NCBI GenBank assembly: GCA_044866725.1
Contig: JBIOUD010000150.1
Span: 1 to 39,978 of the forward strand
Reading direction: 5' to 3'
From: Candidatus Limnocylindria bacterium
GTDB taxonomy: Bacteria; Chloroflexota; Limnocylindria; P2-11E
DNA: 39,978 bases
Below are positions 1 to 11,344 of the stretch, in pieces (the first letter of the stretch is position 1; each line of letters opens with the position of its first letter). The position numbers and the translations under genes are program-made. The notes below the pieces were generated by a model. It was given only the letters and a program-made list of their open reading frames with translations. It was not told the origin of the DNA and did no database searches.

Positions 1-444
1 CGTGTCCGCGATCGCGCGCGCGATCGCGTCCGCATCGAGGCCGATGACGGCGAGCATCCCGCCCGATGGATCCGCCTCCTGCATGAGCTCGCCGCGCTTT
101 CGCACAAGACGTGACGCGTCGGCGAGCGAGAGCGCACCGCCGGCGACGAGCGCGCTGAACTCGCCGAGTGAGAGGCCGAGAAGCGCCACGGGTCCAGCGA
201 GCGGCCCCGCCTCCTGCGCCGCACGCAGTGCCGCGATCGACGCGGTGAGGAGCGCGGGCTGCGTGTTCGCGGTCTGATCGAGCTCGGCCTGCGGTCCGTC
301 CCACGCGAGCTTCTTCAGATCGAGCGAGATCGCCTCGGAGGCTTCGTCGAACGCGTGCATCGCGCTCGCGTATCGCTCAGCGAGCTCGCGGCCCATGCCG
401 ACGACCTGTGATCCCTGTCCGGGGAAGAGCCACGCGACGCCCAT
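1..444 (-). CDS. fabD: Malonyl-CoA:ACP transacylase, N-terminal 148 codons (runs off window start)
   Basis: Absent from the ORF track because it has no stop in the window. Minus-strand translation from ATG 444-442 gives MGVAWLFPGQGSQVVGMGRELAERY...NTQPALLTASIAALRA...LLGLSLGEFSALVAGG...RKRGELMQEA. This contains the GQGSQ and G-x-S-L-G-E acyltransferase motifs and stays in frame to base 1. Confidence 0.85.
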   Translation of the reverse strand, partial: MGVAWLFPGQGSQVVGMGRELAERYASAMHAFDEASEAISLDLKKLAWDGPQAELDQTANTQPALLTASIAALRAAQEAGPLAGPVALLGLSLGEFSALVAGGALSLADASRLVRKRGELMQEADPSGGMLAVIGLDADAIARAIADT

Positions 445-480
445 GGAGCGGGGAGTCTAGTCGGAGCGGGGAGTCTAGTC
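445..480. repeat. Perfect 18-bp tandem duplication (ggagcggggagtctagtc x2)
   Basis: Read directly: 445-462 and 463-480 are identical. The second copy contains the TAG stop (475-477 complement) of the methyltransferase. The first copy abuts the fabD ATG. Confidence 0.95.
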
Positions 481-1950
481 CGGGACGAGGAGCGCTCGGA
501 TCAGGCAGTCGCGGACGAAAGACGTCACGAGGGGACGGACCTCGGAGATCGGCCGTTCCATCGCCGTCGCGAAACGTTCGATCGTCGAAGCGACGGACGA
601 CTCCGCCGCGAGCAAGTCGAAGATCACCGCGCCCGCCTGCGTGAGCTCACGATCGAGCGCGACGCTCGGCGACGCGAAGCGGATCGACCGCACGTCTGCG
701 TCACGCGACGCGCCGGGCGTACGCTCGATATTCATCATCGCCCCCTCGCGTGGACGAACGCGTGCGTTCGCGATCGCGTCATCGCCGGCCTCGGCGATGT
801 CGATCCCCCGGATGAAGGCGCGCGCTTCGTCCCACCGATCGGGAAAACGCGGGACGACGAGCGACATCGTCCAGCCCTCGTACGCGGCGTCCCCCGCTGC
901 GCGCGCGATGACCATCGTGTGCGTGACCTCGTCGATGTGCTCGCGGGCAAGATGCTCGCGGTAGCGCACCGCGCTCTCGCGATAGCGCGCGCCGAAAGTG
1001 GGATCGGCGAGCGCCGCGTAGCCGAGCGCCTGGCGATCGGTGCCGAGGCCGGGCTCGCTGAACACGACGACGTCGGGTCCATCGCCGAGCGCCGTGCGGA
1101 CGCGCTCGTGGACCGCGGCACGCGGACGCACGGGCGAGTCGAACAGCGCGAGCCCGATCCCCCGCGGACGGAGGTGCTCCGGGAGTCCCTCGAGGTAGCG
1201 GAACGCGAGCTCGTCGCCCTTGGTCCCACCGTGCAGGAAGGTGACGCCCGGCTCGTCGCCCGGCCTGGTGACATACGGCGGCTGCGCGACGATCCAATCG
1301 AAGCGCTGCCCGGTGACGGGTGCGAACATGTCGCCACCGCGGATCTCGATCTGGAGCTCGTTGAAGGCCGCGTTGAAGCGCGCCAGCTCGAGCGCGCGCT
1401 CGCTGATGTCCGTCGCGACGACGCGGTCCGCGCCCCTGCGCTTCGCCACGAGCGCGATCGATCCAGGCCCCGTCCCGACATCCAGCACACTTCCGCTGAT
1501 CGGCCGCGGCACCACGGCGAGCAGGTCGCCCGTGGTCGGTCCGGGCGTCATGACGGCCTCGGCTCCCGCCGCGTGGTCGTCGCACCAGATGAAGACGCCG
1601 TCGGCCGTGACCATGCGGAACGCCGACCGCAGCGACCCGTCCTCCTCGCGGAGGATGCCCGCATCGACGAGCCACGAGCGCAGCTGCTTTCCGAGCGCGC
1701 GATCGACGACGTCGGCCGGTACAGCGACCAGATGGAGGAATAGGAGGGCGAGACCGGCGGCGGGATGTGTATCGCGCCGGAGCGCCCACTCCACGAGCGG
1801 GACGCGCAGCTCTTCGGGCATGAACGTGCCGCCCTGCGTCTCGACCGGCAACGGAGTGCGGGTGTCGAACTTCGCGGCGAGGACGCGCCCGCGAAACTCG
1901 GCCGCGCGCTCGCGCGTCATCACGCCGAGACGCGAGAGATCACCGAGCAT
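475..1950 (-). CDS. Class I SAM-dependent methyltransferase (PrmC/HemK-like QPPY motif) with long N- and C-terminal extensions
   Basis: 491-aa ORF. It has the SAM motif VLDVGTGPGSIAL, the acidic loop VVATDIS and IVAQPPY (an NPPY-type motif). The C-terminal ~60 aa resemble a PqqD/RRE-like winged helix (see findings). Confidence 0.75.
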   Translation of the reverse strand: MLGDLSRLGVMTRERAAEFRGRVLAAKFDTRTPLPVETQGGTFMPEELRVPLVEWALRRDTHPAAGLALLFLHLVAVPADVVDRALGKQLRSWLVDAGILREEDGSLRSAFRMVTADGVFIWCDDHAAGAEAVMTPGPTTGDLLAVVPRPISGSVLDVGTGPGSIALVAKRRGADRVVATDISERALELARFNAAFNELQIEIRGGDMFAPVTGQRFDWIVAQPPYVTRPGDEPGVTFLHGGTKGDELAFRYLEGLPEHLRPRGIGLALFDSPVRPRAAVHERVRTALGDGPDVVVFSEPGLGTDRQALGYAALADPTFGARYRESAVRYREHLAREHIDEVTHTMVIARAAGDAAYEGWTMSLVVPRFPDRWDEARAFIRGIDIAEAGDDAIANARVRPREGAMMNIERTPGASRDADVRSIRFASPSVALDRELTQAGAVIFDLLAAESSVASTIERFATAMERPISEVRPLVTSFVRDCLIRALLVPD

Positions 1951-2033
1951 CGAAACTCCTTTGCTCAGTTGGCGACAGGTCGACCATGCGCTACGTTAGC
2001 CGTCGCCGTCGGGGGACGGAGGAGGTGGGATAG

Positions 2034-2783
2034 ATGGACAGCGCACGACCGGATCGTGACGCGCTCGAGATGGAGCTCGCGGAGCTCCGCACAAAGCTGA
2101 AGACGCAGGGGGATGAGCTCGACGCGCTTCGCGCGCAGCTCGCTCCGGCGAGCGGGCCGACGCGCCGCGATCTGCTCCGCGCAGGCGGACTCGTCGGGGC
2201 GGGTCTCGCGGCGCTCACGGTGGCGGGGGTCGCGGGCGCGACGCCGCAGCCTGCGGCTGCCATCGAAGGTCACAACCTTCGGATGAGGGGTGGCCTGTTC
2301 ATCTACCTCACGCTCAAGGGTCAGAAGCAGGGCGACATCAAGGGAAGCGTCACGCAAAAGGGTCGGGAGAACTCGATCCAGGTGCAGTACCTCCAGAGCA
2401 AGATCGTGAGCCCGCGTGATGCCGCGTCCGGCCTGCCGACGGGCAAGCGCCAGCACGAGCCGCTCGTGTGGCGGAAGACCGTCGACAAGAGCACCCCGCT
2501 CCTCCTGAGCGCGCTCGTGAACAACGAGAACATCACCGAGGCCCACTTCAAGTTCTGGAAGCCGTCGCTGACGGGTGCGGAGACCCAGTACTTCACGATC
2601 GATCTCACCAACGCGAGCCTGGCAAGCTCCGACCTGTACCACCCGGACTCCTTCGACTCGACGGCCCCGTCCGCCGGCTCGAGCGACCTCGAGGAATGGT
2701 CGTTCACGTACCAGAAGATCAGATGGACCTTCACCGACGGCGGCATCACTGCCGAGGACGACTGGGAGTCGCCGGTCGTCTAG
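2034..2783 (+). CDS. Hcp/TssD-family (T6SS tube fold) protein with an N-terminal coiled-coil-like segment and a twin-arginine signal
   Basis: A strong SD (ggaggaggtggg, 2018-2029) precedes ATG 2034. The Tat-like signal is TRRDLLRAGGLVGAGLAALTVAGVAGA-T. Residues ~86-249 follow the Hcp pattern (GLPTGKRQHEPLVWRKTVDKSTPLLLSALVNNENITEAHFKFWKP...ETQYFTIDLTNASL...WSFTYQKIRWTFTDGGITAEDDW). The alternative internal start ATG 2283 would give a signal-less 166-aa Hcp. In the 83 upstream codons, 66 end in G/C by my count, which supports the long form. Confidence 0.8.
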   Translation: MDSARPDRDALEMELAELRTKLKTQGDELDALRAQLAPASGPTRRDLLRAGGLVGAGLAALTVAGVAGATPQPAAAIEGHNLRMRGGLFIYLTLKGQKQGDIKGSVTQKGRENSIQVQYLQSKIVSPRDAASGLPTGKRQHEPLVWRKTVDKSTPLLLSALVNNENITEAHFKFWKPSLTGAETQYFTIDLTNASLASSDLYHPDSFDSTAPSAGSSDLEEWSFTYQKIRWTFTDGGITAEDDWESPVV

Positions 2784-2820
2784 CCCGCGCCTTTTCGTGA
2801 CAGTTCGCAATGGGTGGAAG

Positions 2821-5800
2821 GTGAGGGCTCTCGTCCTGAAGATCGGTACGCGCGCGCAACAGAGAGGCATCGCGGCGATCGTCGTCGCGTTCCTCATCGT
2901 CGGCATCGCCGTCGCTCCGGCGGAGTCGGCCGCGGCGACGCGCAACCGCGGGTACTGGATCGCTGGACAGAACGCCCAGGTCTTCGCCTTCGGCGACGGC
3001 TCCGTCCATCCGCAGATCGACCTCCGTCTCGTGCGCGCCCAGATCGTCGACATGGCTGCGCATCCGGATGGGCGAGGCTACTGGCTCCTCGGCCAGGACG
3101 GCGCTGTGTACCCGCACGGCGACGCGCGCGACTTCGGTCAGGGCGGCTTGAGCGATCAGAGCGCGGTCGCGATCGCGTCGACACCGACCGGCGACGGCTA
3201 CTACATCGCGAGCGACAAGGGCGGCGTGAAGGCCTTCGGCGATGCGGTGGACCGCGGTTCGCTGGACAAGAAGGACCTGAGGAAGAGGATCGTCGACATC
3301 GCGGTCACGCCGAGCGGCAACGGCTACTGGCTCGTGGACGAGAGCGGACACATGAATGTCTTTGGCGACGCCGGCCTTTTCGGCTCCCTCGACGGGAAGA
3401 AGATCGTCGCGATGGCCTCGACGCCAAGCGGCAATGGCTACTGGCTCGTCGACGACGGCGGGCAGGTGTGGACCTTCGGTGGCGCGTTCGTGCTGGGCTC
3501 CCTCAACGACCCCGCCAAGAAGGTCGTGGACATCACACCGACGCACACCGGCCGCGGCTACTGGATCGTCGACCGCGACGGTCTCGTGTTCGCATTCGGC
3601 GACGCCGTGCACTACGGCGAGCTCGCGACGGGCGACCTGAAGAATGGGCTCATCGTCGCGATCGTCTCGACGCCGTTCGTGAACCGCGCCCCGGTGGCGA
3701 CCACGGACAGCGTCGCGCTCGACGAGGACATGACGATCGACGTCGACGTGCTTGCGAACGACACCGATGAGGACGGCGATCCGCTCACCGCGACCGTGCT
3801 GACGCAGCCGGCGCACGGGGCCGCGACGCTGAACGGGGACGGCACGATCCGCTACGCGCCGGCGCAGGACTACAACGGCCCCGATTCCTTCACGTACACG
3901 GTCAGCGACCCGTTCGGCGGTAGCGCTGTCGGCACGGTCCACGTCACGGTGCGGCCGGTGAACGACGCGCCCGTTGCGACGGATGACACGTTCTCGACCG
4001 ACGAGGACGCGCCGCTCACGGGGTCGCTCGTCGCGAACGACACCGATGTCGACGGCGACCCGCTCACCGCCGTCCTCGAGACGCTTCCGGCACACGGAGG
4101 CGTCGTGCTCGGCACCGGTGGGGCATTCACTTACACGCCGGGGCCGGACTTCAACGGCGATGACTCATTCAGCTACCGCGCGTCGGACGGACTGCTCACG
4201 TCGAACATCGCGACCGTGCGCATTCACGTGAATCCGGTGAACGACGCACCGGTCGCTCAGCCTGACACCGCGTCGCTCGACGAGGACACCACGCTCACCG
4301 TGACGCCCCCGGGCGTCCTCTCGAACGACAGTGACGTCGATGGGGACGCGCTGCACGCCGTGCTCGCGAGCGGCGCGTCCCACGGCTCGCTCACGCTCGC
4401 GCCGAACGGCGGCTACACGTACACGCCGAACGCGAACTACAACGGCGCCGACGCGTTCACGTACCGCGCGAGCGACGGCGCGCTCGACTCGGGCAACGTG
4501 ACGGTCGCGCTCACGATCCGGCCGGTGAACGACGTGCCCGTCGCGGCGCTCGACACCTACAACGTCACCGAGGACACGGCGCTCGTTGTCGGCGCTCCCG
4601 GCGTCCTTGCGAACGACACCGACGTCGACGGCGACCCGCTGGCCGCCGAGCTCGTGACCGCCCCGACGCACGGCACGCTCACGCTCATGCCCGACGGCAG
4701 CTTCAGCTACGTGCCCGCGGCGAACTTCAACGGGACCGACGTGTTCGTCTACCGCGCGCGGGACGCCGTCTCCGCGTCGGCCGCCACGGCTGCCACGATC
4801 CACGTCGCGGCCGTGAACGACCCACCCGACACGACGGACGACGAGTACCGTGCGCTCGAGGAGACGACGCTCACTGTGGCCGCGCCCGGCGTGCTCGCGA
4901 ACGACAACGACGTCGACAGCCCGACGATGACGGCCACCCTCGGCACCGGTCCGGCGCACGGCGACCTCACGTTCGCGTCGGACGGGTCTTTCGAGTACGT
5001 GCCCGATGCGAACTTCTCCGGCACAGACACATTCACGTACGTCGCGACGGACGGCCTTCGCGCTTCGCGCGAGACCACGGTCGTCATCCTCGTCCAGGGC
5101 GTGAACGATGCTCCTGCGGCGCTGCCCGACGCGTACACGACGGATGAGGACACGTTGCTGCTCGTGGGTGCGCCCGGTGTCATGACGAACGACTCCGACC
5201 CGGACGGCGACACGCTCACCGTCCGACTGGCGGACCGGCCGCTCCACGGTGATGTCGCGCTGCTGCCCGACGGGACGCTCGAGTACATGCCCGACGCGAA
5301 CTTCAACGGCACCGACAGCTTCACGTACGACCTCAGCGATGGCGACGAGACGGTGTTCGGCACGACCGTGACGATCACGGTGACGGCGGTGACGGACCCT
5401 CCGACGGCGAGCGACGACTCATATGCGACGCGGGTCGGCGAGACGCTGTCGGTCGCGGCGCCCGGCGTGCTGGTGAACGACTTCAGCGACGGCGGCGACC
5501 TCACCGCGATCCTGGTGACGGGCCCGGCGCACGGGACGCTGACGCTGAACGGCAGCGGTTCCTTCACGTACACGACGAACCTGGCCGCGGCCGGAAGCGA
5601 CTCGTTCACCTACAAGGTCACCGATGGCGTGGCCGAGTCCGCGCCCGCGACGGTGCACGTCTCAGTGAGCGCGCAGAGTGGCGGTGGTGGCGGTGGCGGC
5701 GGGACGTTCGGCGGGTACGCGCAGCCGACGCTCGTCGTGTGGGACTTCGACAGCTTGAAGCTCGGTGGTGCCGGTGACCTCAAGACGAAGAAGGGCCAGG

Positions 5801-5910
5801 TCAAGAACGGGTACTACCTGCCCAACCGCGGCGAGCGCGGACGCGACTCGTTCGACTACGGCGGCCGCCACTACGAGGTCGACATCATCAGCGACATCTG
5901 GGGCGACTAG
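2821..5910 (+). CDS. Large secreted/surface repeat protein: signal peptide, ~6-blade GYW beta-propeller-like region, 7 tandem ~95-aa cadherin/VCBS-like repeats, Gly8 linker, unknown 68-aa C-terminal domain
   Basis: The ORF-track entry 2575..5910 overlaps the Hcp gene. In-frame GTG 2821 (preceded by gggtggaag) or GTG 2797 lies after the Hcp stop. The N-terminus RGIAAIVVAFLIVGIAVAPAESAAA looks like a signal or anchor. The VNDAPVA...DED..L.V...GVLANDTDVDGDPLTA...P.HG.L.L..DGSF.Y.P...FNG.D.F.Y...D unit repeats seven times. Confidence 0.85.
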   Translation: MRALVLKIGTRAQQRGIAAIVVAFLIVGIAVAPAESAAATRNRGYWIAGQNAQVFAFGDGSVHPQIDLRLVRAQIVDMAAHPDGRGYWLLGQDGAVYPHGDARDFGQGGLSDQSAVAIASTPTGDGYYIASDKGGVKAFGDAVDRGSLDKKDLRKRIVDIAVTPSGNGYWLVDESGHMNVFGDAGLFGSLDGKKIVAMASTPSGNGYWLVDDGGQVWTFGGAFVLGSLNDPAKKVVDITPTHTGRGYWIVDRDGLVFAFGDAVHYGELATGDLKNGLIVAIVSTPFVNRAPVATTDSVALDEDMTIDVDVLANDTDEDGDPLTATVLTQPAHGAATLNGDGTIRYAPAQDYNGPDSFTYTVSDPFGGSAVGTVHVTVRPVNDAPVATDDTFSTDEDAPLTGSLVANDTDVDGDPLTAVLETLPAHGGVVLGTGGAFTYTPGPDFNGDDSFSYRASDGLLTSNIATVRIHVNPVNDAPVAQPDTASLDEDTTLTVTPPGVLSNDSDVDGDALHAVLASGASHGSLTLAPNGGYTYTPNANYNGADAFTYRASDGALDSGNVTVALTIRPVNDVPVAALDTYNVTEDTALVVGAPGVLANDTDVDGDPLAAELVTAPTHGTLTLMPDGSFSYVPAANFNGTDVFVYRARDAVSASAATAATIHVAAVNDPPDTTDDEYRALEETTLTVAAPGVLANDNDVDSPTMTATLGTGPAHGDLTFASDGSFEYVPDANFSGTDTFTYVATDGLRASRETTVVILVQGVNDAPAALPDAYTTDEDTLLLVGAPGVMTNDSDPDGDTLTVRLADRPLHGDVALLPDGTLEYMPDANFNGTDSFTYDLSDGDETVFGTTVTITVTAVTDPPTASDDSYATRVGETLSVAAPGVLVNDFSDGGDLTAILVTGPAHGTLTLNGSGSFTYTTNLAAAGSDSFTYKVTDGVAESAPATVHVSVSAQSGGGGGGGGTFGGYAQPTLVVWDFDSLKLGGAGDLKTKKGQVKNGYYLPNRGERGRDSFDYGGRHYEVDIISDIWGD
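2941..3678 (+). repeat. Six protein-level ~41-45-aa repeats (G-x-GYW-[LI]-x-x-x-x-G-x-V-x-x-FGDA), beta-propeller-like
   Basis: The six repeats read RGYWIAGQNAQVFAFGDG, GRGYWLLGQDGAVYPHGDA, GDGYYIASDKGGVKAFGDA, GNGYWLVDESGHMNVFGDA, GNGYWLVDDGGQVWTFGGA and GRGYWIVDRDGLVFAFGDA. Confidence 0.75.
3679..5670 (+). repeat. Seven diverged in-frame coding tandem repeats of 279-288 bp (tandem-95 / cadherin-like Ig repeats)
   Basis: Repeat-initial GTG-AAC (VN[DR]AP, last one VTDPP) occurs at 3679, 3958, 4237, 4525, 4813, 5101 and 5389. The spacings are 279, 279, 288, 288, 288 and 288 bp. Confidence 0.9.
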
Positions 5911-5919
5911 CCCGGCACT

Positions 5920-5946
5920 GTGACGATCGCGTAACAAGCGCGTCAC
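5920..5946 (+). terminator. Candidate stem-loop after the giant gene
   Basis: The structure is gtgacg-at-cgc / gtaacaa / gcg-cgtcac, a 9-bp stem with a 2-nt bulge, 10 nt after TAG 5908-5910. No U-tract follows, so it is not a classical intrinsic terminator. Confidence 0.3.
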
Positions 5947-5986
5947 GAGGGCGCGACGCGGAACGACTTCTGCGCGACCGGCCGGC

Positions 5987-6253
5987 GTGAAGACGCAGTA
6001 CCTCTACGGACGTCCTTGGCCGGAGGCGATCGCCGGCGCCGTCTGCGGGTTCCAGATCGGCCTTGCGCTCGCGGTCGTACCGCAGCTCACGCGCCTCATC
6101 GAAGACCCCGTCACCGCACCGATCATCCTCGCGATGACCGCCGCCGCGGGTGCGGTCGCGTCGTGGTGGATCGCCGGACGGTCGATGGGCGTCGCGCGCA
6201 CGAAGCTCGAACGGCCGATGGCCCTCGACCGAGAGCGGCGCCGGGCGGCCTAG
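5987..6253 (+). CDS. Hypothetical small membrane protein (two predicted TM helices)
   Basis: 88-aa ORF with a GTG start. The hydrophobic segments are AIAGAVCGFQIGLALAVV and PIILAMTAAAGAVASWWIAG. I recognise no family. Confidence 0.45.
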   Translation: MKTQYLYGRPWPEAIAGAVCGFQIGLALAVVPQLTRLIEDPVTAPIILAMTAAAGAVASWWIAGRSMGVARTKLERPMALDRERRRAA

Positions 6254-6531
6254 CCTCGTCCACGCGGCGTCACGATGACGTCGCGGAACTCGGGGAAGTA
6301 GCGCTCGATCGTCGAGAGGCTGAACTCGCGCAGGATGCTGGTGTTCTCCTCGCGCGCGAGCAGGAACTCGATGGAGCGGCGCACGAGATCGCCCACGTCA
6401 CCGCCACCGAAGCGCTCGTGCTCGGCGCGCGTCACACGGACGCGATGCGAGGTCGTGCTCGCGGCGACGATGCGCACGTCGGCGATCCAGCCCTCGGTCT
6501 CTTTCCGGACCGTCAGTGTGACGGCCGCCAT
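6250..6531 (-). CDS. Hypothetical 93-aa protein translationally coupled to the BCCP-like gene
   Basis: ATG 6531-6529 overlaps the upstream TGA (6533-6531) as ATGA. The composition is balanced and not Arg/Pro-rich (MAAVTLTVRKETEGWIADVRIV...IEFLLAREENTSILREF). No family recognised. Confidence 0.6.
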   Translation of the reverse strand: MAAVTLTVRKETEGWIADVRIVAASTTSHRVRVTRAEHERFGGGDVGDLVRRSIEFLLAREENTSILREFSLSTIERYFPEFRDVIVTPRGRG

Positions 6532-6965
6532 CAGCGCAGCGCGATGACGAAGAGCGCCTGACCGTATTCGACCGGTGCGCCGGTGGTCACGAGGACCTCG
6601 CGGATCTCCCCGTCGGCCGGCGCCTTGACCTCAGAGATGTGTCCGAGCGTCTGGATGCCGCCGAGCACCTCGCCGCGCGTCACCGCGTCGCCCGGGCTCC
6701 ACGCGCGCGGCCCGTTGAAGATGCCGACAGTGCCGGCGTGCACGCGCTGGGTCTTTGGCGCTGACGCCTCCGCTTCAGCGGACGGCGTCCGCCGCGGAGA
6801 CACCGCCACGGCGGCTTCCCCGCCCTGCGGCGTGCGCACGACACCGCTGCGGCGCGACACCGTCACGGCGAACCCATCCGCCTGGACCTCGATGGTCGAC
6901 GCGGGCGAATCCGAGAGCAGCTTCATGAGGTCGTCGAGCAGCCCGAGGACGTGGTCGTCGCTCAC
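6531..6965 (-). CDS. Biotin-carboxyl-carrier-protein-like protein (biotinyl/lipoyl fold) lacking the biotinylated lysine
   Basis: The C-terminal AGTVGIFNGPRAWSPGDAVTRGEVLGGIQTLGHISEVKAPADGEIREVLVTTGAPVEYGQALFVI aligns without gaps to the AccB hairpin, with TLGH in place of AMKM. I chose GTG 6965 as the start because it forms a GTGA overlap with the accA stop. The track start 7001 would overlap accA by 40 nt. Confidence 0.75.
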   Translation of the reverse strand: MSDDHVLGLLDDLMKLLSDSPASTIEVQADGFAVTVSRRSGVVRTPQGGEAAVAVSPRRTPSAEAEASAPKTQRVHAGTVGIFNGPRAWSPGDAVTRGEVLGGIQTLGHISEVKAPADGEIREVLVTTGAPVEYGQALFVIALR

Positions 6966-7939
6966 CGGTCCAAGCCTGCCATGCGGCGCAGTCTGCGCCA
7001 CCAGGGGACCGGTGGCGGCGGCGCGACCGGCCCGCCGAGCTCGGTCAGGGTGCCGAAGCCGCGGAAGCGCTCGTACCTGGCGGAGAGGAGCTCGGTGACC
7101 GAGACGCGCTCGAACTTCGCAAGCTGCGCGACGAGCGCGGTCTTGATGGCCGACGCGGTCGCGTCGTGGTCGGTATGCGCGCCGCCGGCCGGCTCGGGGA
7201 TGAGCGCGTCGACGACACCGAGATCGAGGAGGTCGGGTCCGGCGAGACGCGCGGCCTTCGCGGCGCGCTCGGCTTCGGCCGGACTGCGCCCGAGGATCGA
7301 GGCGGACCCTTCAGGCGAGATCACCGAGTAGATCGCGTTCTGCATCGCGAGCACGACGTCGCCGATCGCGAGCGCGAGCGCGCCGCCCGATCCGCCTTCT
7401 CCGAGGATCACGACGACGATCGGCGTGCGTAGGCGAGTCATCGTGAAGATCGCCTTCGCGATCGCCTGGGCCTGCCCGCGTTCCTCGCCCTCGGGTCCGG
7501 GATACGCCCCAGGCGTGTCCACGAGCGTGATGAGTGGCAGGTGGAACTTCTCGGCGAGCTTGTACAGGCGGATCGCCTTGCGGTAGCCCTCGGGGTGCGG
7601 CATCCCGAAGTTGCGGTGGATGTTCTCCTCGGTCGATGCGCCCTTCTGCTCGCCCACGACGACGACCGGCCGTCCATCCAGCTCGGCGATCCCGCCCACG
7701 ATCGCCGGGTCGTCGCGGAAGCCGCGGTCGCCATGGATCTCCTGGAACCGGTCGAACACGCGAGTGATGACATCCAGCGCGTGCGGCCGCTTGATGTTCC
7801 GCGCCGCCTGCACCGCGTCCCACGCCGACGCGCGCGACGCGAGCTGCTGCGACGAGGTGATGAGGTTCGCGTCCTCGGGGATGTGCCCGTTCGAACCCGG
7901 AGTCGCGCGCGCGCCGACGATGCGGTCGAGCATGCCCAA
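6962..7939 (-). CDS. accA: Acetyl-CoA carboxylase carboxyltransferase alpha subunit
   Basis: Motifs seen: GMPHPEGYRKA, LITLVDTPGAYPG and ILGEGGSGGALA. The start is TTG 7939 (adjacent to the accD stop) or ATG 7933. Confidence 0.9.
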   Translation of the reverse strand: MGMLDRIVGARATPGSNGHIPEDANLITSSQQLASRASAWDAVQAARNIKRPHALDVITRVFDRFQEIHGDRGFRDDPAIVGGIAELDGRPVVVVGEQKGASTEENIHRNFGMPHPEGYRKAIRLYKLAEKFHLPLITLVDTPGAYPGPEGEERGQAQAIAKAIFTMTRLRTPIVVVILGEGGSGGALALAIGDVVLAMQNAIYSVISPEGSASILGRSPAEAERAAKAARLAGPDLLDLGVVDALIPEPAGGAHTDHDATASAIKTALVAQLAKFERVSVTELLSARYERFRGFGTLTELGGPVAPPPPVPWWRRLRRMAGLDR

Positions 7940-8791
7940 CTAGAGGCTCCAGCGCATGTCTTGCGACGCGGCGCGGAATGCGGTGAGGAAGAACGCGACG
8001 CGGTCGCGCAGCTGCGTGCGCGGCACGATCTGGTCGAGGAAGCCCTTCTCGAGCAGGAATTCGCTCTTCCCGAATCCCACCGGCAGCTTCTCGCCGACGG
8101 TGCCGCTGGTCACGCGCTCGCCCGAGAAGCGGATGAGCGCGCCAGGCTCCGCGAGGTTCAGGTCACCGAGCGACGCGTACGACGCGAGGACGCCTCCGGT
8201 CGTGGGGTCGGTGATGATGCTGACGTACGGGAGGCCGGCGTCGTCGAGGCGCGCGAGCGCCGAGACGATCTTCCCCATCTGCATGAGCGCAAGCGTGCCT
8301 TCCTGCATACGCGCGCCGCCCGACGCGGAGACGACCACGAGCGCACGTCGCTCGGCGAGCGCGCGCTCCGCGGCGCGGGTGATCTTCTCGCCGACGACGC
8401 TGCCCATCGAGCCGCCCATGAACTCGAAGTCCATGACCACGAGCTCTACCGGATTGCCGCCGATCGTGGCGCTCCCGGCGATGGCCGCGTCCTTCTCGCC
8501 GCTCTTCGCCTGCGCCGCGGCGATGCGCTCGGGGTACGGCTTGCTGTCGACGAAACCGAGCGGATCACCTGAGGAGAGCGCGCCGTCCTGCTCGCTGAAC
8601 GAGCCCTTATCGACGAGCAGCTCGATGCGCTCGCGCGCGCCCATCCGGAAGTGGTGCCCGCACTTCGAACAGACGCTCTGGTTCCGCACGAGCTGCTTGT
8701 TGAACAGCATCTCGTCGCAGGACGGGCACTTCGTCCAGAGGTGATCCGGGAATTCCTTCGGCTTGCGGCCGAAGGGCATGCGGAGCCTCAT
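7940..8791 (-). CDS. accD: Acetyl-CoA carboxylase carboxyltransferase beta subunit
   Basis: It has the N-terminal zinc ribbon CPSCDEMLF...CSKCGHH, then MGGSMGSVVGEK and SGGARMQEG. The start forms an ATGA overlap with the degV-like stop. An alternative ATG is at 8779. Confidence 0.9.
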   Translation of the reverse strand: MRLRMPFGRKPKEFPDHLWTKCPSCDEMLFNKQLVRNQSVCSKCGHHFRMGARERIELLVDKGSFSEQDGALSSGDPLGFVDSKPYPERIAAAQAKSGEKDAAIAGSATIGGNPVELVVMDFEFMGGSMGSVVGEKITRAAERALAERRALVVVSASGGARMQEGTLALMQMGKIVSALARLDDAGLPYVSIITDPTTGGVLASYASLGDLNLAEPGALIRFSGERVTSGTVGEKLPVGFGKSEFLLEKGFLDQIVPRTQLRDRVAFFLTAFRAASQDMRWSL

Positions 8792-9666
8792 CGCGGAGGT
8801 TCTCCGGCGTCACCGATTGGTTCTTGGTACCAGCAGAGGCCGATCACGCCCGGGCCCGCGCGCGCGCCGATGACCGGGCCGGCTTCTGCCGTCCAGTGTT
8901 CGAGGCAGTGGTACTTCTCCTGGACCCAGTCGGCGACGTCGCGCGCGCGCTCGGGCTCGTTCGTGTGGAGCGTGCACGCTCGGATACGCGATCCCGCGGG
9001 CACACGCTCGAGCACGATCTCTTTCATGCGAGCGACCGCCTTGTCGCGCGTGCGGATGCGTTCGATGGGATGGACCTTGCCGTCGGCGACGTCGAGGATC
9101 GGCTTCACCTGCAGCATCGAGCCGAACAGCGCCTGCGCGCCGGACACGCGGCCCGAACGCTTCAGGTACTCGAGCGTGTCGGCGACCGCGAGCAGCGGGA
9201 CCTTCCCGGCCATCTTCTTCGCGAGCGCGACGCCGTCCTGGAACGACCCACCCCTGGCGCGGAGGCGTCCGACGGCCGTCGCGATGAGCGAGATGCCGCC
9301 GGCGAGCGATCGCGTGTCGACGACCTCGACCTCGGCGGTCGGGACCGCCTGCGCCGTCGTCGCCGCAACGGAATAGGTCCCGGAGAGCTCGGTCGCGATC
9401 GTGAGGACCAGGAGCTTGTTGATGCCCTCTTTGATGATCCGGTCGTACACGTCGCGGCATTCGCCCATCGACGGCTGCGACGTCCCGGTGAGGACGCCCG
9501 GTGCCGCGATCTTGCGATAGAACTCGTCCGCGGTGAGGTCGACGTTCGCGGTGAACGTCTCTTTCCCGATGTCCACGTGCAGCGGAAGCCAACGGATGTC
9601 GAACTCGCGCTCGATCTCCTTCGTGAGGCACGCGGTGCCGTCGACCACGATCGCGAACCTATCCAT
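8788..9666 (-). CDS. DegV-family fatty-acid-binding protein
   Basis: The sequence IVVDGTACLTKEI...TGTSQPSMGE...GPGVIGLCW has the typical DegV layout, including the TSQPS motif. Confidence 0.85.
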   Translation of the reverse strand: MDRFAIVVDGTACLTKEIEREFDIRWLPLHVDIGKETFTANVDLTADEFYRKIAAPGVLTGTSQPSMGECRDVYDRIIKEGINKLLVLTIATELSGTYSVAATTAQAVPTAEVEVVDTRSLAGGISLIATAVGRLRARGGSFQDGVALAKKMAGKVPLLAVADTLEYLKRSGRVSGAQALFGSMLQVKPILDVADGKVHPIERIRTRDKAVARMKEIVLERVPAGSRIRACTLHTNEPERARDVADWVQEKYHCLEHWTAEAGPVIGARAGPGVIGLCWYQEPIGDAGEPPR

Positions 9667-10437
9667 CTATGCCCTCCTCACTTCGCCGCTGACCACGCGC
9701 TCGACGCCGGTCGCGGTGTGCACGAGGAGCGCGCCCTCGTCGTCGATCGCCGTCGCGGTCCCAGAGAACGGCGCGCGTCCGTCGATGCCGACCGTGACCG
9801 GCCGCCCGAGGATCGACGAGCGCGCGGTCCACGCGTCGCGTGACGCCGCGAACGTGCGCGCGTCGGCGACACGGTCGAGCTCACGCGTCACACGGTCGAG
9901 GAGCGCGAGCCGATCGACAGCCACGCCGGCGATCGCGAGCGACGTCGCGAGGCTCTGGATCTCCGGCGCGAGGTCCTCACGCCGTTGGTGCACGTTGATG
10001 CCGATGCCGAGCACGAGCGATCCTCCCCTTCCGTCCGACGTCCCATGTGCCAGAACGCCGGCGAGCTTTTGACCGTCCAGCTCGACGTCGTTCGGCCATT
10101 TTAGGAGGGCACCCTCGCAGCCGAGCCCGTCGAGCGCGCGCGCCACCGCGAGGCCCGCGAGCGCCGCGAACATCGCGGGCGCCACCGGCGCCGGGCGGAA
10201 GATCCACGACGCGAGCAGGCTCGTGCCCGCGGGCGCGACCCACGCGCGTCCGCGTGTGCCCTGACCGGCATCCTGCGCGTCCGCGACGACGACGCCGGCC
10301 GTCGCGCCGCCGGTCACGAGCTCGCGCGCACGGGTCTGCGTCGATCCGATGCGCTCGTGGTACTCGATGTCGCGGCCGAGCTCGCGCGCGATCGCTGAGC
10401 GCACCGCGGAACGAGCGAGGAGCGGGAGGCGGGGCAC
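9667..10437 (-). CDS. birA: Biotin-[acetyl-CoA-carboxylase] ligase (group I, no HTH domain)
   Basis: Motifs seen: GQGTRGRAW, KWPNDV and GIGINV. GTG start at 10437. The stop is immediately adjacent to the degV-like ATG. Confidence 0.85.
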   Translation of the reverse strand: MPRLPLLARSAVRSAIARELGRDIEYHERIGSTQTRARELVTGGATAGVVVADAQDAGQGTRGRAWVAPAGTSLLASWIFRPAPVAPAMFAALAGLAVARALDGLGCEGALLKWPNDVELDGQKLAGVLAHGTSDGRGGSLVLGIGINVHQRREDLAPEIQSLATSLAIAGVAVDRLALLDRVTRELDRVADARTFAASRDAWTARSSILGRPVTVGIDGRAPFSGTATAIDDEGALLVHTATGVERVVSGEVRRA

Positions 10438-10456
10438 GACTCAGCTGCCCACGGTC

Positions 10457-11344
10457 CTATGAATTGGTCACCTGCGCGCCGGCCGCGCGAGCCCGGAGCA
10501 CGCGCGCGCGGCCGCCGACACCGTGCTGCTCGGCCGTCTCCTCCATCGCGGAGACGACCCGCGGCGCGAGACGCACGGGCGCGATCGCGAGCACGCTCGG
10601 TCCGGCGCCGGAGAGCGCTGCACCGAACGCGCCCGCCCCGCGCGCCGCCGCGATGATCTCGCCGAGCGCCGGCACAAGGCGCGTGCGTGCGGGCTGATGG
10701 AGACGGTCGTTCATCGCGAGCGAGAGGAGCGTGCCGTCCGAGCGCAGCACCGCGGCGACAAGTGCGGCGGCGTGCGAGAGATTGAAGATCGCGTCGGCGC
10801 GGGACACGAGGTCGGGCAGTACACGGCGCGCGTCCTCAGTAGCGAGCGTGTTGTTTGGCACGAAGACGCAGAGCCTCCACATGCGCGGGAAGGCGATGCG
10901 CGTGGCGACGGGACCGCCCTCGTCGGGAAGCGCGAGCGTGAACGCGCCATAGAGCGCCGCGGCGACGTTGTCGGCGTGCCCCTCGACCTCGGTCGCGACA
11001 CGCAGCAGTGACCGGCGATCGAACGGCTCGCCGAGGAGCGCGTTCGCGGCGACCGCGCCGCCGACGATCGCCGCCGCGCTCGAGCCGAGACCGCGCGCGA
11101 TCGGGATCGTCGAGCGCTGCTCGACGTGTTGCGCGGCGATGTTCTGTCCGGCGGCCTTGCCGACCGCGCGCGCCGCGACCACGAAGAGGTTGTCCTCCCC
11201 AACCGGCAATCCGTCTCGGTCACCGCGGAAGCTCCATGTGCGAGCCGGGTGCATCTCGAACTCCGCGAGCAGCGGAAGCGCGACGGCGAACGAGTCGAAC
11301 CCTGGCCCGAGGTTCGCGCTGGACGCGGGGACGCGGATCCTCAC
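10457..11344 (-). CDS. thrB: Homoserine kinase
   Basis: The N-terminus is VRIRVPASSANLGPGFD and the GHMP motif is PIARGLGSSAAA. I trimmed the 562-aa track ORF to GTG 11344, which overlaps the thrC stop as GTGA. Confidence 0.85.
   Translation of the reverse strand: MRIRVPASSANLGPGFDSFAVALPLLAEFEMHPARTWSFRGDRDGLPVGEDNLFVVAARAVGKAAGQNIAAQHVEQRSTIPIARGLGSSAAAIVGGAVAANALLGEPFDRRSLLRVATEVEGHADNVAAALYGAFTLALPDEGGPVATRIAFPRMWRLCVFVPNNTLATEDARRVLPDLVSRADAIFNLSHAAALVAAVLRSDGTLLSLAMNDRLHQPARTRLVPALGEIIAAARGAGAFGAALSGAGPSVLAIAPVRLAPRVVSAMEETAEQHGVGGRARVLRARAAGAQVTNS

Follow-up and report, generated by a model that had tools for sequence, protein, structure and literature searches.

The window analysed here is a stretch of 39,978 nucleotides from Candidatus Limnocylindria bacterium, a soil Chloroflexota (class Limnocylindria) represented by a metagenome-assembled genome (MAG) that is 74% complete. 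On its minus strand, directly after accA, lies a gene at 6531-6965 (stop codon 6531-6533 included) that encodes a 144-residue paralogue of BCCP, the biotin carboxyl carrier protein in acetyl-CoA carboxylase (ACC). The paralogue is a full-length BCCP homologue without the lysine that would hold biotin, and a glycine stands in its place. The sequence-level reading, that this paralogue is real, conserved and selected, is secure, and what appears to be new here is a conserved, operon-encoded, biotin-free BCCP paralogue in a whole bacterial class, for which the plant BADC proteins are the known precedent.

The open reading frame begins with a GTG codon at 6963-6965 that overlaps the TGA stop codon of accA at 6962-6964, and the two together form GTGA (6962-6965). 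These codon positions bear out the translational coupling to accA that had been proposed in an earlier, sequence-only reading of the window. We also considered the upstream GTG at 7001 as an alternative start and dropped it, since the N-termini of the orthologues (MSDDH, MSEADH and MSDQDP) favour the start at GTGA. When we compared the product with profile libraries, residues 90-141 matched positions 22-73 of Pfam PF00364 (Biotin_lipoyl) with 32.4 bits against a cut-off of 22.1, passing the gathering threshold. The NCBIfam model of BCCP, TIGR00531, was matched end to end (residues 10-141 on positions 6-154 of 156) with a score of 43.6 bits, which does not reach the family cut-off of 115.2 bits; the true accB of the same genome, with 104.4 bits, likewise falls just below it. 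A total of 521 homologues were found at E<=0.001, and these are labelled 'acetyl-CoA carboxylase biotin carboxyl carrier protein' by JGI and 'biotin/lipoyl-containing protein' by NCBI.

The acceptor column was then established at the codon and alignment levels. Read on the minus strand, the codons GGC ATC CAG ACG CTC GGA CAC ATC give G-I-Q-T-L-G-H-I, in agreement with the codons read earlier, and GGA at 6642-6644 encodes Gly108. In the phmmer alignment with E. coli BCCP (4hr7_B), 'gevlggiqtlghisevka' lies over 'gdtlciveamkmmnqiea' without a gap and with the top posterior marks, so that Gly108 falls on the biotinyl-lysine of E. coli, Lys122, and MAFFT placed it in the identical column. Gly108 occupies the hairpin tip, flanked by strands 100-106 and 109-114, and here the paralogue has L-G versus the M-K of canonical carriers; the motif reads Q-T-L-G-H, and the biotinylation motif (E/A)-M-K-(M/L) is absent. 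Thus the earlier claim of a glycine at the biotinyl-lysine position holds, with the profile alignment placing Gly and not the nearby lysine there, and the alignment together with the invariance of this glycine (see below) supports the reading of the protein as a BCCP look-alike to which biotin cannot be attached at the canonical site.

The nearby lysine is Lys114 (codon AAG at 6624-6626, in EVKAP), which closes the second hairpin strand of the model (109-114), six residues beyond the tip. Biotin ligases generally require the acceptor lysine to sit at the tip of the hairpin. We examined Lys114 as a shifted biotin acceptor and ruled it out, because the HMMER alignment has Gly in the acceptor column and the orthologues have T, S, V, R, Q or C where Lys114 would be, which leaves the sequence-only reading unrefuted on this point. 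Moreover, no conserved lysine column was found anywhere in the paralogue family in alignments of the orthologues of the class. The second missing feature is the protruding thumb of ACC-type biotinyl domains. At the corresponding place the paralogue has a shortened loop (residues 84-91, 6693-6716), and when we counted the residues between the conserved F and G, the loop of the paralogue comprised 8 residues and was thus 6 residues shorter than that of E. coli and of the canonical accB of the class, which have 14. Because the lysine, the thumb and the family cut-off all fail, the paralogue was not assigned to the working AccB, that is, the functional carrier of TIGR00531.

We next consider the predicted structure, which was calculated with AlphaFold2 on a 52-sequence alignment and has a mean predicted local distance difference test (pLDDT) score of 77. 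The N-terminal part (residues 1-40, 6846-6965) is predicted to form a helix (residues 3-19) and a β-hairpin (strands 24-29 and 32-37) with pLDDT values of 71-81, which corresponds to the α/β/β motif of BCCP N-termini, and its pattern L..L...L....IEV....v.v.R is kept class-wide. It is followed by a linker rich in Ala, Pro and Ser (residues 41-67, 6765-6845) that is predicted to be disordered (pLDDT <50) and varies in both length and sequence among the orthologues. The C-terminal part (residues 70-144, 6534-6758) is predicted with pLDDT values of 91-95 to adopt the biotinyl-domain fold, a barrel-sandwich hybrid, without the acceptor lysine. When we searched with this model using Foldseek, the best match was 1BDO, the biotinyl domain of E. 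coli BCCP, with a template modelling score of 0.79 (target-normalised), and the next matches were apo-BCCP 1A6X, Pyrococcus BCCP, Arabidopsis BCCP1 and 4HR7. In the model, the whole BCCP architecture of N-terminal α/β/β motif, flexible linker and C-terminal barrel-sandwich domain is kept, and nothing of BCCP is lost but the parts that deal with biotin.

The glycine is conserved well beyond this genome. Gly occupies the column in each of the 120 closest homologues (67-94% identity), for the most part as QTLGH, and also in 15 of 15 species-level genome loci (43-71% identity), mostly from Limnocylindria/Chloroflexota MAGs; the gene order thrB-birA-degV-accD-accA-paralogue is found in all of these loci that reach far enough. 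Since the glycine is invariant in the 120 close homologues and in every genome locus examined, the pattern is not due to chance. The retention of Gly rather than AMKM in orthologues also removes the possibility, raised with the sequence-only reading, of a lineage-specific decay. When we extended the survey to 61 genomes of Limnocylindria, in which five families were sampled, strong orthologues were present in 20 genomes, belonging to the family designated f1 and the same order. The 18 weaker matches fetched from the other three families were all of the Gly type (V-[DE]-[VM]-L-G) and lay directly after accA, and a class-wide profile recovered a Gly-type copy in nine of ten genomes that had given no match to the single sequence. 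The ratio of nonsynonymous to synonymous substitution rates (dN/dS) of the paralogue was 0.08-0.31 in 35 pairs, and the gene is under purifying selection. The arrangement with accA is conserved as well: the [A/G]TGA overlap with the accA stop was found in 24 of 35 loci, and in 8 more the start lies 0-4 nt after the stop. One locus, L016 from a Chloroflexi MAG, displayed an apparent fusion of accA and the paralogue in one open frame of 636 amino acids, which we rejected as an artefact, as the accA segments are in different frames and the second ends with a TGA overlapping ATG. This split of the accA match (5053-5986 of the locus) between two frames is probably due to a frameshift or an assembly error.

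The genes preceding the paralogue are those of the carboxyltransferase and of biotin attachment, all on the minus strand. Directly before it, accA (6962-7939) encodes the carboxyltransferase α subunit (PF03255, 3.4e-113; NF004344, 378.9 bits, above the cut-off), and accD (7940-8791) encodes the β subunit with an N-terminal zinc ribbon (TIGR00515, 362.7 bits, above the cut-off; PF17848). Further upstream are a degV/FakB-like gene for a fatty-acid-binding protein (8788-9666; PF02645, 1.8e-73) and birA (9667-10437; TIGR00121, 130.8 bits; PF03099 and PF02237), which encodes a group I biotin protein ligase and is the first gene of the block; no DNA-binding domain was detected in this ligase with Pfam and NCBIfam. 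A scan of 5800-10800 for promoters and terminators found none. The operon shared with birA, as claimed earlier, is confirmed in the sense of tightly packed genes on the same strand, and every locus that extends far enough has birA upstream of accD. The degV gene, on the other hand, belongs to the operon only in the family and order of the window (loci L009-L023 and L124/L125), with no match in the loci of other families.

The cluster in which the paralogue resides is larger than the window suggests. Its class-wide order is birA-(degV)-accD-accA-paralogue-(fabD)-accC-fabZ-fabF-accB, and the accB at its end carries the canonical EAMKLFNEI. The earlier statement that the gene is fixed inside the carboxyltransferase operon is therefore correct in placing it directly after accA but too narrow, as the cluster runs on to fabD, accC, fabZ, fabF and the true accB. 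Neither accC nor a second BCCP was found in the window, and the further matches of the genome are on contigs C57, C89, C202, C49 and C64. A search for a second, canonical accB next to accC had been suggested, and both genes do exist in this genome, on separate contigs: accB (EAMK) adjoins fabF on contig C57, while accC lies between fabD and fabZ on contig C49. The absence of accC and canonical accB, as noted earlier, is thus true of the window, but accC sits just past the window end and is not missing by design; it falls outside only because a module of about 5.8 kb and a contig break intervene. A catalytic BCCP and the heteromeric ACC genes accA, accD and accC occur alongside the paralogue in this genome and in 27 other genomes of the class. 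Besides the split accC and accB, the genome encodes two fused acyl-CoA carboxylase α subunits, in which biotin carboxylase (BC) and BCCP are joined, on contigs C202 and C89 (L006, L007, L003 and L004).

The layout in this window is a variant of the class-wide order, with degV in the operon, an additional small gene, and the cluster split by a block containing genes for an Hcp-like protein and an adhesin. The small gene, orf93 (6250-6531, minus strand), encodes 93 amino acids, is coupled to the paralogue through ATGA, and gave no Pfam or NCBIfam match. Its relatives (61-67% identity) were found only in L011/L125 and L012, and a search of the remaining 32 class loci, among them L124 from the same genus, did not detect it. 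As relatives exist in only two other genomes, orf93 was ruled out as a constant partner of the paralogue, and we regard it as a sporadic accessory gene. Between orf93 and fabD, the block of about 5.8 kb (475-6253) contains genes for a methyltransferase, a Tat-Hcp-like protein, a 1111-amino-acid repeat adhesin and an 88-amino-acid membrane protein. Of the 29 relatives whose sequence extends to accC, 27 have a total of 0-2.4 kb before that gene at the same site; the spacing is larger in L016 and L017, at 3.5 and 4.4 kb. The block looks like a foreign insertion into a conserved housekeeping cluster. At the start of the window, 148 codons of the 5' part of fabD (1-444, minus strand) are present, and contig C49 carries the rest of the frame, followed by accC and fabZ. 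When reverse-complemented, the first 22 nt of the window are identical to the first 22 nt of C49 (L005, 1-496), and the frame runs on from ...ARAIADT to GMVVAND.... Because of this exact 22-nt overlap and the continuous FabD frame, the two contigs very probably abut. The assembly break between them falls in a CG-rich stretch.

The heteromeric ACC of bacteria is known from textbooks as a four-subunit enzyme, and it is a target for antibiotics and engineering. Based on the comparisons above, we suggest that the paralogue is probably a non-catalytic fifth subunit of ACC that co-assembles with the enzyme through the N-terminal motif of BCCP. According to a preprint on the ACC tubes of E. coli, the first approximately 30 residues of BCCP are predicted to form an α/β/β motif, an AlphaFold-Multimer β-barrel of these N-terminal motifs fits the central density of the tubes, and the C-domain of BCCP parks on BC and the N-terminus of AccD (PMC11160672). 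The corresponding hairpins of Chloroflexus BC1 assemble into an eight-stranded barrel by which BC dimers are joined (PMC11077971). Since these two papers assign an assembly role to the N-terminal element, the paralogue may enter the same N-terminal oligomer as BCCP, its own motif co-oligomerising with that of the true carrier. Its inert C-domain could then fill the BCCP docking sites on biotin carboxylase and the N-terminus of AccD, and the paralogue, itself carrying no CO2, would determine how the holoenzyme is assembled, its stoichiometry or its activity. As its synthesis is coupled to that of accA, we lean towards a constitutive role in structure or assembly rather than that of a conditional inhibitor, as far as gene arrangement can tell.

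Here, we need to consider several observations that weigh against the subunit reading. First, one genome of the same family (G037, 91% complete) gave no clear copy in either the single-sequence or the class-profile search. Second, the paralogue evolves faster than accA and accD, with identities of 44-71% versus 65-88%. Third, most of the conserved columns are fold-defining ones, and for this reason no specific interface can be read from them.

Other roles for a protein of this kind have to be weighed as well. The negative regulation by BADCs that was brought up in the earlier reading is an analogy, and co-translation with accA would suit a stoichiometric subunit no less than an inhibitor. A competitive inhibitor in the original BADC sense would replace BCCP on biotin carboxylase and lower ACC activity in a condition-tuned manner, which amounts to the sub-case of the subunit reading in which the effect is negative. 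A BCCP architecture without the acceptor lysine, encoded beside a true accB, is in keeping with this role, and according to PMC12706156, BADCs were initially introduced as negative regulators, lowering ACC activity in vitro. However, the translation of the paralogue is hard-wired to accA in nearly all genomes, which would be awkward for a dose-dependent inhibitor, and later plant work sees BADCs as assembly 'glue' or 'cap' and holds its own structural constraints to be at odds with inhibition (PMC11926652). Based on these points, we consider a dedicated inhibitor rather unlikely.

It is very unlikely, in our view, that the paralogue keeps only the N-terminal function of AccB and acts outside the enzyme as a regulator, for example in acc autoregulation. 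The N-terminal motif is indeed conserved class-wide, and a role of the AccB N-terminus in regulating expression is discussed in the E. coli ACC-tube preprint (PMC11160672). However, no other part of the protein is as well conserved or as confidently folded as the C-domain, which would be unexpected if only the N-terminus mattered, and no DNA- or RNA-binding feature was found in the paralogue. The position of birA upstream of accD in every locus that reaches far enough, together with a fold that is that of the BirA substrate, raises the further thought that the paralogue might be a decoy or partner of BirA that modulates the biotinylation of the true carriers. Against this, the hairpin tip that the ligase recognises is altered (L-G for M-K), the thumb is missing, and the gene is coupled to accA and not to birA, and we hold such a role to be highly improbable. 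Finally, descent from a duplicated accB that is now decaying or without function could account for the score of 43.6 bits against the family cut-off of 115.2 and for an evolution faster than that of the neighbours, but the chance of this is negligible, as a pseudogene is ruled out by the dN/dS of 0.08-0.31 and the class-wide conservation, and the frame is intact, the glycine is invariant across five families and the fold is predicted with confidence.

Lysine-less BCCP-like proteins were also found outside Limnocylindria. We examined the 150 nearest cluster representatives at 50% identity (P0121-P0269), a sample whose counts are biased by the lysine-less query. Among the 147 aligned representatives with a residue at the column, 61 have Lys and 86 do not, the other residues being G (38), R (23), N (11), T (4), S (4), A (3) and C, D and Q (1 each), and the representatives without Lys fall into several separate clades. 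Such proteins thus seem to be common in metagenomes, as far as these alignments indicate. Two further types have the full-length BCCP architecture without the lysine, like the Limnocylindria paralogue, but differ from it in the replacement residue and in the genomic slot. In Armatimonadota (L089, L090 and L132), the K-to-R type with IETMRLMND is a full-length BCCP-like protein in the usual accB slot upstream of accC, and a canonical full-length BCCP with IEAMKTFSEV (L128) is encoded in the Armatimonas genome (L090/L132) as well. At L090, an open reading frame of 127 amino acids with a hydrophobic, prepilin-like N-terminus, as read from the sequence by eye, lies between the K-to-R gene and accC. 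In Ktedonobacteria (L091-L105, L126, L127 and L129), the K-to-N type with IESLNVINE differs also in keeping a loop of thumb length; in L100 its gene lies between an Xaa-Pro peptidase (pepP)-like gene and xseA, these neighbours having been read by eye, and a canonical full-length BCCP (EAMKVF) was present in two of the three Ktedonobacteria genomes checked, adjoining fabF in both (L130 and L131).

The question of origin was approached with constrained trees. A tree holding all Gly-type proteins of Limnocylindria in one clade was not rejected, being 9.8 log-likelihood units better (p-AU 0.72), and neither was a clade that unites them with the accB of the class (p-AU 0.53). The trees of this short paralogue do not separate one from several origins of the lysine-less clades, nor do they decide on descent from the accB of the class. 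A wider proposal is that the lysine-less paralogues represent a fifth subunit of heteromeric ACCs in bacteria that is ancient and widespread but has been overlooked, which would co-assemble via the N-terminal barrel and set the number of active biotin arms; the BADC design, taken to be plant-only, would then be a general solution at which bacteria arrived first. We put this forward as a tentative possibility that may well prove wrong.

If the paralogue is indeed a subunit, some bacterial ACCs would have a fifth one that is conserved and selected throughout a whole class, with analogues in other phyla. The operon would then also offer a simple and compact genetic system that can be expressed in E. 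coli for deciding whether dummy carriers build or brake ACC, a matter that is disputed for the BADCs. There is a consequence for annotation as well: because JGI labels the paralogues as biotin carboxyl carrier protein, pathway reconstructions can take them for the working carrier.

When we compare the paralogue with known systems, the closest bacterial relative is AccB/BCCP itself (TIGR00531; 1BDO, 1A6X and 4HR7), with which it has the three-part architecture and the fold in common. It differs in having Gly108 instead of the biotinyl-lysine, a thumb that is 6 residues shorter and a score below the family cut-off, and its genome contains a separate canonical accB (EAMK). The AccE/PccE ε subunits of actinobacterial acyl-CoA carboxylases are small accessory proteins whose gene lies directly after a carboxyltransferase gene. 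They resemble the proposed role of the paralogue as non-catalytic accessory subunits, but they are not known to be homologues of BCCP, and their carboxylases are of the type with fused BC-BCCP. Bacterial acyl-CoA carboxylases in which a non-catalytic subunit serves as 'glue' of the holoenzyme are cited in PMC11926652.

In the literature searched, in which the original BADC paper (Salie et al. 2016) was known through citing papers, no bacterial lysine-less BCCP was described. The nearest precedent is found in plants and algae, where BADCs are non-biotinylated, BCCP-like subunits of ACC (PMC12706156, PMC11926652). Their role is disputed, the proteins having been regarded first as inhibitors and later as assembly 'glue' (PMC12706156, PMC11926652); a nuclear magnetic resonance study proposes that BADC caps the thumb of BCCP1, and the BADC subunits are given as a reason why the quaternary organisation of plant ACC differs from that of the bacterial enzyme (PMC11926652). 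BADCs and the Limnocylindria paralogue are alike in combining a biotinyl-domain fold with a disordered region while lacking the biotinylation motif, and in coexisting with a catalytic BCCP in a heteromeric, E. coli-type ACC (PMC12706156, PMC11889953, PMC11926652). In contrast to the BADCs, the paralogue is bacterial, encoded in an operon and translationally coupled to accA. Based on this comparison, we suggest that it can be described as a BADC-like protein, but a bacterial and operon-encoded one.

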